This document shows positions 8,366 through 14,627 of a DNA stretch of 64,000 nt, in pieces (within the stretch, counting starts at the first letter, position 1; each line of letters begins with the position of its first letter). The notes below the pieces were generated by a model, which searched no databases, had not been told where the DNA came from, and saw only the letters and a list, made by a program, of their open reading frames with translations. The translations under genes and the position numbers were made by a program. Source of the stretch: Oscillospiraceae bacterium (GTDB lineage Bacteria; Bacillota; Clostridia; Oscillospirales; Oscillospiraceae); contig JAJQEJ010000055.1 in NCBI GenBank assembly GCA_021201735.1, positions 4,650 through 68,649 of the forward strand. The letters are read 5' to 3'.

Positions 8366-8393
8366 ACCGGTTTGATCTGCACTACATAGAATA
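8366..8393 (+). promoter_or_regulatory. Mother-cell (sigma-K-like) promoter motif of beta-helix paralog 1
   Basis: AC at 8366-8367, exactly 17 nt of spacer, then CATAGAATA at 8385-8393. This fits AC-N17-CATAnnnTA. It lies 49 nt upstream of the ATG. Confidence 0.55.
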
Positions 8394-8441
8394 CGATAAC
8401 TCCTGTAAGAGACAACAATACTTTGACAATGGAGTAATCGT

Positions 8442-11357
8442 ATGTATATTCTTAATCAACTTGCGCTTCCAGATAACTGTGCCGAACGGAACGTCACCCG
8501 ACGGATTCTGCCAAGAAGCATTCCAGGCGGATATCTGGTCTATGCGACCCCTGATTTGTCCACTGTTTTGTATGCAGAGGACACGCTTTCGGCGGCGTTT
8601 ACCGACATCAACAATGACACCAGCGGTATCACCGCGTTTACCGTGGTGGCGACCGGTGATGATGCTGATGTCGGCGAGACTGCGAACCTGACCACGAACA
8701 AGACCGTCACCCTTACATCGCCCGCCGGGGCAAATTCCATTTTGCGCAAGGGCGCGAACGACAGACATATCCTCTTAACCGCAGGGGAGCTTGTGCTCAC
8801 CAACATCACACTCGACGGCAATGGGTTTAGCGGCGGCTTATCCATTACTGGCGCTTCCCTCATCATAGAGGACGGCGCGGTGATTCGCAACAATGTCAGC
8901 ACCGGCACCGGCGTCGGTATCCTGGTTTCTCACGGCACCTTCCTGATGCGTGGCGGAGAAATTTACAACAATATCAACACCTCCGATTTTGGCGCAAGCG
9001 GCGGCGGGGTATATCTTGGCACTACGCTCACGGCGGGTGAATATTCCGGAAGCTACGGCTTTATGGAAGGCGGAAAAATCTATGGGAATCAAAACTACTG
9101 GGGCGGCGGCGTAGCCGTTGGGATTTTCAGCCACTTCACGATGTCCGGCGGCGAGATTTTTAACAACCTTGCGACCAATGCCGGCGGCGTAGATGTATAT
9201 GTCAGAGCGATCTTCACCATGAATGGCGGAAGTATTTACAACAATACCGCTGCCTCCAGTAGCGGCACAACCGGATCCGGCGGCGGCGTATTTGTGGGGC
9301 AAGGAACCCATGTGGCCGGTGAACCGACGGACTGGTGCAGATTCATCATGAACAGCGGCAGCGTGGAGGGCAACAGCTGCATTACCGGTGGCGGCGGCGT
9401 TGCGCTGATCTATAACGGGCAGATGGAGATGAACGGCGGAAGCATCTCCAATAACCGCACCAGCAGTGCCGGTGGCGGTGTGCTTCTTCGTATCGTAGAT
9501 CGGACGGACTTAACCACGCCGATGTACTTCAAAATGTCAGGTGGCACAGTGTCGGGCAATGAGGCCAGATTCGGCGGCGGCATCTGCCTGTATGATTATG
9601 ACGTGATATCCTTTGCCAAAGAAGTTATGCTTACGATAACCGGCGGGGTGATTACAGGGAACACGGCCACACCCCAATATGGCGGCGGGATTGTTGTGGT
9701 AAGGTATCCCACAAACCCTGACACGGTCACCTTTGAGATCGGCAGCCCAACAGAAAGCGAAACCGCCGCGCCGGTAATCAGTGGCAATCAAGCTGCCACT
9801 ACCGGCGGCGGTATCCAAATTTTAAATGTCACGCTTACCATGTATGCCGGTATGGTCAGTGGAAATGCAGCGGTAGACAACGGTGGCGGCATTGTTGTCT
9901 CCACAGGGAGTACACTCATCATGCCTGGAGGCTCCATTGAGGGAAATACTTCGGGTAGCAATGGCGGCGGCATATGGGTCTCCGCCAGCGGGACAGCGAA
10001 CCTCAGCGGTGCAACCACGATCATCAATAACACCGCCACAAACGAGGGCGGCGGAATCTATACGGCGGATTTTACAGACTATGCAAACCTGACCGCGAGC
10101 GACTATCAAAATATCACGACGGCAAACACGGTTGTGTTCGGCGGAAATTCCGCTTCGGCGGCTTATGAGCCGCCCGCCATCGCGTCCAGCTATACCAATA
10201 TCGGCTATGCATCCACCAGCATTGTGGGCAGCGGTGGCTTTCTGAACCCGATTAACAACTACGATATCAACTATGTCTTCCCGCCCAGTCTTCTTGTTTA
10301 CGCGGTATCTTACAATGCAAACGGCGGTGTCGGCAGCTATCCGACGGAATATTTTGTGGAGGGCACCGAATATACAGTGCTCTCGCCGGAGGAGACGGGC
10401 ATCAGCCGCCCGGGTTACACCTTCACCGGCTGGAATACCCAGCCCAACGGCACCGGAACCGCGTACCAGCCGGGGGATACCTTTGTGATTACTGAAGATG
10501 TCAACCTCTACGCCCAGTGGGAGGCGGTCGCAGGCACGGTCTCCGTGCTCTATGATTCCAACGGCGGTACCGGCAGCCATGCGGATGTAGGCCTTCCCAT
10601 CGGGACAGAATACACCATTCTCACACCGGAGGAGATAGGAATCAGCCGCCCGGGCTATACCTTCGTCGGCTGGAATACCCAGCCCAACGGAACCGGCACC
10701 GCGTACCAGCCGGGGGATACCGTTGTCTTGACCGAGAATCTGATCCTATACGCCCAGTGGGTCACCGTCCTGGGGCCCTACGATGTGCTCTACGAAGCCA
10801 ACGGCGGCACCGGCATCTTTGTGGATACCGGCATTCCCGGCGGCACGATATACACCATTCTCACACCGGAAGCGACAGTGATCAGCCGCCCCGGCTACGT
10901 CTTCACCGGCTGGAATACCCAACCCGACGGAAGCGGCATCACGTACCAGCCGGGGAATACGGTGACGATCAACGAGAATCTGACGCTCTACGCCCAGTGG
11001 ACTCCGATGATGGTAGCGTTCCATGTAATCTATAACGCCAACGGCGGCACCGGCGGATTTACGGATACCGTGCTCTACGGTACCCTATACGACGTCCTCT
11101 CCTCCTCGGAGGTGGGGATCACCCGCCCGGGCTACACCTTTACCGGCTGGAACACGCAGCCCGACGGCAGCGGCACCGCGTACCAGGTCGGCGATACGAT
11201 CCTCATCACCGGCGACGTGACACTCTATGCCCAGTGGGTGGCAAACGAAGCGCCGGTCCCTCCGGTATGCTGCATCCCGTGCTGCAACATCTGTTGTCCT
11301 CCATGCTGTATACCTTGTACCAACAAAAAGACAAACTGCCATACAAGAGTATGGTAA
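8442..11357 (+). CDS. Beta-helix / Flg_new-repeat protein, no signal peptide, Cys-rich C-terminal tail (paralog 1)
   Basis: 971 aa. The N-terminus MYILNQLALPDNCAERNVTRR has no hydrophobic segment. There are about 550 aa of GGG[IV]-type turns typical of right-handed parallel beta-helices, then 4 Listeria-Bacteroides (Flg_new) repeats (..NANGGTG..GYTFTGWNTQPDGSGTAY..LYAQW). The tail is VCCIPCCNICCPPCCIPCTNKKTNCHTRVW. Confidence 0.85.
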   Translation: MYILNQLALPDNCAERNVTRRILPRSIPGGYLVYATPDLSTVLYAEDTLSAAFTDINNDTSGITAFTVVATGDDADVGETANLTTNKTVTLTSPAGANSILRKGANDRHILLTAGELVLTNITLDGNGFSGGLSITGASLIIEDGAVIRNNVSTGTGVGILVSHGTFLMRGGEIYNNINTSDFGASGGGVYLGTTLTAGEYSGSYGFMEGGKIYGNQNYWGGGVAVGIFSHFTMSGGEIFNNLATNAGGVDVYVRAIFTMNGGSIYNNTAASSSGTTGSGGGVFVGQGTHVAGEPTDWCRFIMNSGSVEGNSCITGGGGVALIYNGQMEMNGGSISNNRTSSAGGGVLLRIVDRTDLTTPMYFKMSGGTVSGNEARFGGGICLYDYDVISFAKEVMLTITGGVITGNTATPQYGGGIVVVRYPTNPDTVTFEIGSPTESETAAPVISGNQAATTGGGIQILNVTLTMYAGMVSGNAAVDNGGGIVVSTGSTLIMPGGSIEGNTSGSNGGGIWVSASGTANLSGATTIINNTATNEGGGIYTADFTDYANLTASDYQNITTANTVVFGGNSASAAYEPPAIASSYTNIGYASTSIVGSGGFLNPINNYDINYVFPPSLLVYAVSYNANGGVGSYPTEYFVEGTEYTVLSPEETGISRPGYTFTGWNTQPNGTGTAYQPGDTFVITEDVNLYAQWEAVAGTVSVLYDSNGGTGSHADVGLPIGTEYTILTPEEIGISRPGYTFVGWNTQPNGTGTAYQPGDTVVLTENLILYAQWVTVLGPYDVLYEANGGTGIFVDTGIPGGTIYTILTPEATVISRPGYVFTGWNTQPDGSGITYQPGNTVTINENLTLYAQWTPMMVAFHVIYNANGGTGGFTDTVLYGTLYDVLSSSEVGITRPGYTFTGWNTQPDGSGTAYQVGDTILITGDVTLYAQWVANEAPVPPVCCIPCCNICCPPCCIPCTNKKTNCHTRVW
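10299..11237 (+). repeat. Four tandem ~78-aa Flg_new (Listeria-Bacteroides) coding repeats in paralog 1
   Basis: Each unit starts Y/F-x-V-x-Y-x-x-NGG and ends LYAQW. The units are very similar to each other at the DNA level. Confidence 0.8.
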
Positions 11358-11365
11358 TCTGACCG

Positions 11366-11403
11366 CAAGAGGGGCATGGTGTACAATCGCCGTGCCCCTC
11401 TTG
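11366..11403 (+). terminator. Hairpin after paralog 1
   Basis: A 14-bp stem, CAAGAGGGGCATGG / CCGTGCCCCTCTTG (one G-U pair), with a 10-nt loop. No U-tract follows. Confidence 0.5.
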
Positions 11404-14428: not shown

Positions 14429-14433
14429 TCTGA

Positions 14434-14477
14434 CTGCAATAGTGGCACGGCGGTTTTTCGCCGTGCCACTATTGCAG
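14434..14477 (+). terminator. Hairpin after paralog 2
   Basis: An 18-19 bp perfect stem, CTGCAATAGTGGCACGGCG / CGCCGTGCCACTATTGCAG, with a GTTTTT loop. No U-tract follows. The sequence is unrelated to the hairpin after paralog 1. Confidence 0.5.
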
Positions 14478-14599
14478 AATCAAATCGCAGACGTTGATGT
14501 GGCGCTACTGCCAGCGCAGCCTCTATACCATTCACAGATATTTTGCGCCCACTAGAATGCCAATGAGTTATACAAATAATCCCAATCAATCCGGTGAGA

Positions 14600-14627
14600 A
14601 CCTGTAAGGTCATCGCGACATATGATA
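14600..14627 (+). promoter_or_regulatory. Mother-cell (sigma-K-like) promoter motif of the collagen-like gene
   Basis: AC at 14600-14601 (again within GAACC), a 17-nt spacer, then CATATGATA at 14619-14627. It lies 41 nt upstream of the ATG at 14668. Confidence 0.55.

Follow-up and report, generated by a model that had tools for sequence, protein, structure and literature searches.

Results

Three genes for signal-less proteins and the sites upstream of them

The stretch of DNA analyzed here (the window: 64 kb, C55:4650-68649 of an Oscillospiraceae genome of 2.35 Mb in 80 contigs, with 56.6% guanine plus cytosine [GC] and 97% completeness) contains three consecutive forward-strand genes for unusual proteins that lack export signals, each preceded by a site that we regard as a probable promoter for RNA polymerase carrying the mother-cell sporulation factor sigma-K. 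Gene 1 (8442-11357, +) encodes a protein of 971 amino acids whose N-terminal part is beta-helix-like and which also has four Flg_new repeats (PF09479) and, at the C-terminus, a Cys-rich tail (CCIPCCNICCPPCCIPC); gene 2 (11510-14428, +) is its tandem paralog (972 amino acids, 85% identity) and is built in the same way, Cys tail included. In both proteins the Flg_new repeats are recognized at an E value of about 1e-54 and 10 Cys fall among the last 40 residues, and no N-terminal hydrophobic signal or signal peptide was found in either. The third gene (14668-16137, +) encodes a collagen-like protein of 489 amino acids with a Cys-rich N-terminus (CWCVPISCC) and a long GXY region (PF01391, E = 8.8e-49); no signal peptide was found in it, and its C-terminal 134 residues gave no Pfam match, PF18573 (BclA_C) included. 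The ATG at 14668 is preceded by a ribosome-binding site, AGGGGTG, which the in-frame GTG at 14656 (the start given in the list of open reading frames) lacks.

The three predicted sigma-K-type promoters, P1 to P3, are all intergenic, sense-oriented and placed before genes with a ribosome-binding site. P1 (8364-8393, +) consists of the -35 element GAACC (GA at 8364-8365, AC at 8366-8367), a spacer at 8368-8384 and the -10 element CATAGAATA at 8385-8393; P2 (11432-11461, +), the duplicated copy of P1, has GAACC (AC at 11434-11435), a spacer of 17 nucleotides (nt) and CATAGAATA at 11453-11461; and P3 (14598-14627, +) has GAACC (AC at 14600-14601), a 17-nt spacer and CATATGATA at 14619-14627. The motif ends 49 nt before the ATG of gene 1 (8442), 49 nt before that of gene 2 (11510) and 41 nt before that of the collagen-like gene (14668). 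A first-pass annotation of this DNA had reported the sites, their N17 spacing and these distances, and our reading agrees with it to the base. It had also likened the sites to the B. subtilis sigma-K consensus, AC-N16/17-CATAnnnTA. In the literature the sigma-K consensus is given as [a/c]AC[a/c]-N16-CATA-N3-TA (PMC5749712), which equals AC-N17-CATAnnnTA; P1, P2 and P3 match this consensus with zero mismatches, the [a/c]AC[a/c] part being AACC at 8365-8368, 11433-11436 and 14599-14602. A hairpin lies 3' of gene 1, between that gene and P2 (11367-11402, +; it lacks a U-tract, was read directly and is absent from the terminator scan), and another lies 3' of gene 2, before P3 (14441-14470). Because of these hairpins and the promoter predicted for each gene, we read gene 1, gene 2 and the collagen-like gene as separate transcription units.

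Within the window, GAAC-N17-CATAnnnTA occurs three times, at P1-P3 only, where 0.05 matches are expected. The plain form, AC-N17-CATAnnnTA, has five matches against 0.71 expected (0 of 100 shuffled sequences reached five), and AC-N16-CATAnnnTA has one against 0.78. The earlier assertion that the motif marks exactly these three genes thus holds for the GAAC form and fails for the plain AC form, whose two further matches lie at 32857-32884 (+) and at 17614-17641 (-). The first of these (TCACC ... CATAGAGTA) is in promoter position, 47 nt before an open reading frame at 32931-33620 (229 amino acids, weak PdaC/DUF3298 matches, no signal peptide) that may be another sigma-K target; the second is intragenic, inside the gene for a paralog with SLH domains that is described below.

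P1 and P2 belong to one 3068-bp tandem duplication (81% identity over 62 nt, 8363-8424 and 11431-11492) and therefore count as one event; P3 lies outside the duplication and hence provides independent support, as the first-pass annotation had argued. The homology between the two copies starts at 8363 and 11431, that is, at the -35 element itself, so that the duplicated unit took with it the minimal promoter only and no upstream sequence, which suggests that this short segment acts as a minimal, self-sufficient promoter cassette.

Sporulation genes of the host and the distinction between sigma-K and sigma-E

SigE, SigG, SigK, SigF and SigH are all encoded in the genome, according to a sigma-factor search. 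Against the NCBIfam model of the SigK subfamily (cut-off 252), the SigK gene (C77:7745-8440) reaches 277 bits, and its product carries an N-terminal pro-sequence; spoIVA, spoIID, spoIIIAA, a dpaA-like gene and cotJB are present as well (yabG, which was searched for in this genome as a sigma-K reference gene, was not found). Because the sporulation sigma factors and these five genes are encoded, the organism is, by its gene content, an endospore former. The sigK gene itself is uninterrupted, with the pro-sequence encoded and no skin-like insertion, and in this it differs from sigK of C. difficile; upstream of it lies GGAATA-N17-AATAGGATG, which is sigma-E-like in appearance.

In both C. difficile and B. 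subtilis, promoters for sigma-E and those for sigma-K have nearly identical -10 elements, and specificity at -35 is set by one residue of region 4.2, where sigma-E has Gln and sigma-K has Arg (PMC3789822). At this residue the host SigE has Gln (ISQSYISRLEKR; ISQSYISR) and the host SigK has Arg (ISRSCVSRIEKR; ISRSCVSR). Upstream of the host spoIVA and spoIIIAA genes we find ATA-N16-CATAG.., which is of sigma-E type, and upstream of the dpaA-like gene (on C24; dpaA is sigma-K-dependent in B. subtilis) GCAC-N17-AATAGGATA; the upstream regions of spoIID and cotJB are ambiguous as to promoter type. P1-P3 have AAC at -35 and lack the ATA of a sigma-E promoter. Because AC stands at P1-P3 and ATA at spoIVA and spoIIIAA, and because SigK has Arg where SigE has Gln, P1-P3 are, on these sequence criteria, of sigma-K type and not of sigma-E type, and the comparison shows, as far as predicted elements can, that the rule of AC for sigma-K and ATA for sigma-E extends to the host lineage. 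The first-pass annotation had considered the two factors inseparable from sequence, which is too strong, since the -35 element separates them.

A sigma-E promoter, or a dual sigma-E/sigma-K promoter, would switch the genes on earlier, at engulfment. Such a reading draws on the near-identity of the -10 elements (PMC3789822), on promoters of model organisms that are read by both factors, and on the observation that 65% of the genes that sigma-K controls in C. difficile also drop in a sigE mutant (PMC3789822). That drop is explained by the sigma-E dependence of sigK transcription, however, and AC in place of ATA stands at -35 not only at P1-P3 but also at the independent paralogs described in the next section; with the Gln/Arg difference between the two host factors in addition, we give this reading only a small probability.

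Genes of the same class elsewhere in the genome

We scanned the whole genome using home-made, crude gene calls (1867 genes), which yielded 1186 upstream regions, searched within 160 nt of the gene. The exact motif AC-Nx-CATAnnnTA was found in three regions for each spacer length from N12 to N15, in eight for N16 (several of them plain TTGACA sigma-A promoters), 12 for N17, one for N18, five for N19 and one for N20, and N17 is therefore the preferred spacing of the exact motif genome-wide. The GAAC-N17-CATAnnnTA form has seven matches in the genome, six of them in promoter position, and the local -35 preference is apparently G[A/C]AC. Genes behind N17 matches include those for YmaF (PF12788), an Fe/Mn superoxide dismutase, a YtaF-like membrane protein, a collagen-like protein (on C50) and a protein with a BclA_C domain (on C75; PF18573, E = 9e-22). 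In C. difficile, the YmaF-like gene CD3620, bclA1-3 and dpaAB are sigma-K-controlled (PMC3789822).

The motif follows the class of protein. A BLAST search of all predicted proteins recovered three more signal-less Flg_new paralogs with a Cys-rich end (C64_1927-4452, C71_8953-11544 and C13_22079-22669), all of which have AC-N17-CATAnnnT 24-45 nt before the ATG, the last base of the consensus being the only departure from it. The relaxed N17 motif is present in 1.85% of upstream regions as background; it precedes four of four Cys-end paralogs (the duplication counted once) and zero of 17 paralogs with a signal peptide or SLH domains for which an upstream region was available (Fisher p = 1.7e-4). 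Four further collagen-like genes encode a Cys-rich N-terminus; the one on C50 has the exact motif, and those on C68 and C16 have AC-N17-AATAnnnTG. When the -10 element is relaxed to [C/A]ATAnnnT, nine of ten genes of the Cys-rich class have it, as compared with none of the 17 signal-peptide paralogs. AC-N17-AATAnnnT(A/G) stands before the dpaA-like gene and before the collagen-like genes at about 18044 on C68 and about 13227 on C16, and an A-initial -10 element (AATAnnnT) may be an accepted variant in the host lineage.

Two other collagen-like genes were observed in the course of this survey. A mini-gene for a protein of about 90 amino acids with a Cys-rich N-terminus (VDFRFCNSNCGQPSFNACHCVPSVC...) occurs at about 40620-41180 (-) on C23 and also in G001, a sister species introduced below (L032 1429-1719, -), where it adjoins a recombinase gene; in both genomes TGAC-N17-CATATGCTG lies about 110 nt upstream of it. 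On C35, a collagen-like gene (7341-7904) whose product has no Cys-rich N-terminus directly adjoins a CRISPR-like array (upstream, to 11638; repeat GTCGCCCCCCACGCGGGGGGCGTGGGTCTAAAT).

Conservation in a sister species and in metagenomes

The one genome of the same genus that we compared, G001, is 77% complete and has kept the motif at three loci. At the position orthologous to P1 it has GGAC-N17-CATAGGATA, in which AC and CATAnnnTA are kept; the variation falls on the nnn bases and on the 3' half of its spacer. The C64 ortholog has kept the motif within an upstream region that is 90% identical. The informative comparison is that of C71 with its counterpart on C153 of G001: the -35 block CACGGT is identical in six of six positions and the -10 block CATATGAT in eight of eight, around a spacer with only 3 of 14 positions identical. 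No ortholog of the window's collagen-like gene was found in G001 (just a truncated paralog that adjoins a recombinase gene), and there is therefore no direct footprint for P3.

The motif, as AC-N16/17-CATAnnnT, is found outside the genus as well. Of the metagenomic homologs that are signal-less and have a Cys-rich tail (n = 7, 28-40% identity), six carry it, at 22-86 nt upstream of the ATG; when two related pairs are each counted once, this is four of five. The motif was found in none of four signal-peptide homologs from the same source, and its chance rate elsewhere in the metagenomic loci is 0.019 per 200 nt. At one of these loci, L043, a gene with an A_ENA domain (PF26595, at 1-85) lies about 1.4 kb upstream of the Cys-tail homolog P0022, with two small genes between them, a hint that the surroundings of this homolog may be concerned with the spore surface.

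Chance matches, sigma-A promoters and other readings of the sites

Consensus fit, spacing, the sigma factors of the host, the class of gene and conservation all support the first-pass proposal that P1-P3 are mother-cell sporulation promoters, and this support is comparative, not experimental. Several results weigh against it. The -10 elements of P1-P3 contain TAGAAT or TATGAT, each five of six to the sigma-A hexamer TATAAT, and a sigma-70-like match, TTCACA-16-TAGAAT (14531-14558, +), lies 40 nt upstream of P3 and may be a sigma-A promoter that competes with P3, or adds to it, at the collagen-like gene. In the genome-wide scan, the relaxed motif AC-Nx-CATAnnnT was found in 22 regions for N17, 18 for N19 and about 10 for other spacings, which amounts to only about two-fold enrichment at N17. 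In tandem intergenic regions, sense and antisense matches number seven and four for the exact motif and 15 and 20 for the relaxed one, with no clear excess, in a comparison affected by genes that the caller missed in long gaps (several antisense matches lie in such gaps, and at least one precedes a missed gene, the collagen-like mini-gene on C23). A pile-up of all 93 CATAnnnTA sites in promoter position has no more than a weak A/C preference at -19/-18; the set is mixed, with sigma-E sites and extended-TATAAT sigma-A promoters among its members. No clean motif was found upstream of the collagen-like gene with a Cys-rich N-terminus on C32 or of the metagenomic Cys-tail homolog L044. Finally, the P1 and C64 comparisons with G001 are weak evidence because the whole leader or upstream region is conserved (81-90% identity throughout).

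On the sigma-A-like hexamers, the match at 14531-14558 and the sense/antisense comparison one could build the reading that P1-P3 are AT-rich chance matches in intergenic sequence, or weak sigma-A promoters with TAGAAT or TATGAT as the -10 element, the genes being expressed vegetatively and the collagen-like gene perhaps transcribed from 14531-14558. We consider this improbable, on these grounds: the threefold occurrence of the GAAC form in a window where 0.05 matches are expected; the association of the motif with signal-less proteins; its retention across species around a diverged spacer; and the -35 region, where no acceptable TTGACA-like element is found at 16-18 nt. In a sigma-70 scan no match coincided with P1-P3, and by direct reading the best -35 candidates there agree with TTGACA in one to three of six positions, where a TTGACA-like element would have at least four. 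Vegetative synthesis, in the cytoplasm, of adhesin-like proteins of 970 amino acids with a tail of 10 Cys would also make little sense.

A contrasting case lies just downstream. The SLH paralog (16389-19805, -), whose gene is convergent to the collagen-like gene, has a signal peptide and SLH domains, and the sigma-A-type promoter claimed for it, TTTACA-17-TATACT, is real; it is located at 19918-19890 on the reverse strand and has a TG extension. A tRNA gene (20052-20122, -; Rfam RF00005, 59 bits) stands just upstream of that promoter, behind a TTGACA...TATAAT promoter of its own. Within the gene 1 leader there is a further sigma-70-like match, TTGACA-16-TATATT (8423-8450, +; 11 of 12 positions), which overlaps the ATG; it is lost in copy 2 (TTTATA) and in G001, and because it is not kept in either it is probably a chance match.

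A third reading takes the conserved block to be chiefly a site bound by a different regulator (GerE-like or SpoIIID-like, for example) or an element of the 5' untranslated region (UTR), with the resemblance to sigma-K promoters secondary. Its appeal is that the two copies and their ortholog in G001 are conserved from the -35 element through ATAACTCCTGT, which their leaders have in common (8398-8437, 11466-11505 and L013 1459-1495, respectively), to the ribosome-binding site, and that the ACUCC of ATAACTCCTGT is able to pair with GGAGU of the ribosome-binding site. The additional conserved bases are absent, however, from P3 and from the sites on C64, C71, C50 and C13, which share only [a/c]AC and CATAnnnT with the duplicated copies; the 5'-UTR folds are no more stable than those of shuffled sequence (z = -1.0, -0.2 and -0.3), and an Rfam scan of the region gave no match at the leaders, its sole match being the tRNA. 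We regard the regulator or UTR reading as very unlikely, and an ACUCC/GGAGU hairpin as the explanation of the conserved leader was dropped on the strength of the fold comparison. Forespore promoters (sigma-G or sigma-F) were rejected, as their -10 consensus differs from CATAGAATA and the mother cell is the only compartment from which signal-less proteins can get to the spore surface.

Discussion

A probable late mother-cell promoter for proposed surface proteins of the spore

Taken together, these comparisons make it likely that P1-P3 are functional promoters read by sigma-K RNA polymerase and that the genes behind them are expressed in the mother cell after engulfment. On this model the sigma-K holoenzyme would start transcription near 8400, 11468 and 14634, about 7-10 nt past the -10 elements, and each of the three genes would be transcribed from its own promoter in the mother cell at that late stage. 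The products, having no export signals, would be made in the mother-cell cytoplasm and deposited on the exterior of the forming spore, as part of the coat or exosporium, and their Cys-rich ends would probably become cross-linked by disulfides once the mother cell lyses. The model suggests that the two large repeat proteins and the collagen-like protein end up on the spore surface.

A wider proposal follows the same lines, and we put its chances at about even: proteins that combine a sigma-K-type promoter, the lack of a signal peptide and a Cys-rich end may form an undescribed family displayed on the spore surface, present in several genera of gut Oscillospiraceae and their relatives, in which adhesin-like beta-helix/Flg_new ectodomains of the vegetative wall have been re-addressed to the spore. 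The vegetative-wall counterparts have a signal peptide plus an SLH or membrane anchor and a sigma-A promoter; if the proposal is true, an exchange of the promoter and the gain of a poly-Cys anchor would be all that re-addressing from wall to spore requires.

The promoters are the sole direct clue to when and where these three unusual signal-less proteins are made, and the place they indicate is the surface of the spore, in an uncultured bacterium of the gut Oscillospiraceae, among which the spore envelope is essentially uncharacterized. The genes collected here (collagen-like genes, the BclA_C protein, YmaF, the YtaF-like protein, dpaA and the Cys-end Flg_new proteins) offer a first sketch of the late mother-cell regulon of the lineage.

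Comparison with known sigma-K systems

P1-P3 agree with sigma-K promoters of B. subtilis and C. difficile in the AC of the -35 element, the spacing, the -10 element, the range of distances to the start codon and the Arg of SigK, and the targets are likewise of spore-envelope type (collagen-like, BclA_C, YmaF and dpaA). They differ in that the host is an uncultured Oscillospiraceae with 57% GC, represented by a metagenome-assembled genome, and in the apparent G[A/C]AC preference at -35 and the AATAnnnT variant at -10.

Collagen-like genes of the bclA type are under sigma-K control in both C. difficile (PMC3789822) and B. thuringiensis (PMC4750369), and the exosporium genes bclA, bclB, bxpB and exsY in B. 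cereus-group bacteria are under SigK and modulated by GerE (PMC4750369). As in the B. cereus group, where every collagen-like nap-type gene has a promoter to itself with a SigK consensus, the collagen-like gene of the window has its own predicted sigma-K promoter; unlike the proteins of that group, its product is without a Pfam BclA_C domain and, where the Bacillus proteins have an exosporium-targeting motif, begins with a Cys-rich N-terminus. The spore-appendage locus of C. taeniosporum, with the paralogs P29a and P29b and the collagen-like GP85 and CL2 behind predicted sigma-K promoters (PMC5749712), is similar in layout: in both Clostridia spore formers, near-identical paralogs and a collagen-like gene each have a predicted sigma-K promoter. 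The protein families are unrelated (DUF11 repeats there, beta-helix/Flg_new proteins with Cys tails here), and our host is not known to form appendages.

The bclA1-3 products of C. difficile are, like the predicted products here, sigma-K-controlled, signal-less proteins of the spore surface, and collagen-like as is the product of the third gene (PMC3789822). The large beta-helix/Flg_new passenger domain is without counterpart among the spore proteins described from C. difficile, and this sets the two paralogs apart from them. The Cys-rich ends do have a parallel in that species, in CdeC and CdeM, which are sigma-K-controlled, signal-less, Cys-rich exosporium proteins, although no homology to these two in sequence was found, and no search aimed at it was made. 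Measured against all of these systems the promoters themselves are textbook, and the protein family behind them is the more interesting part.

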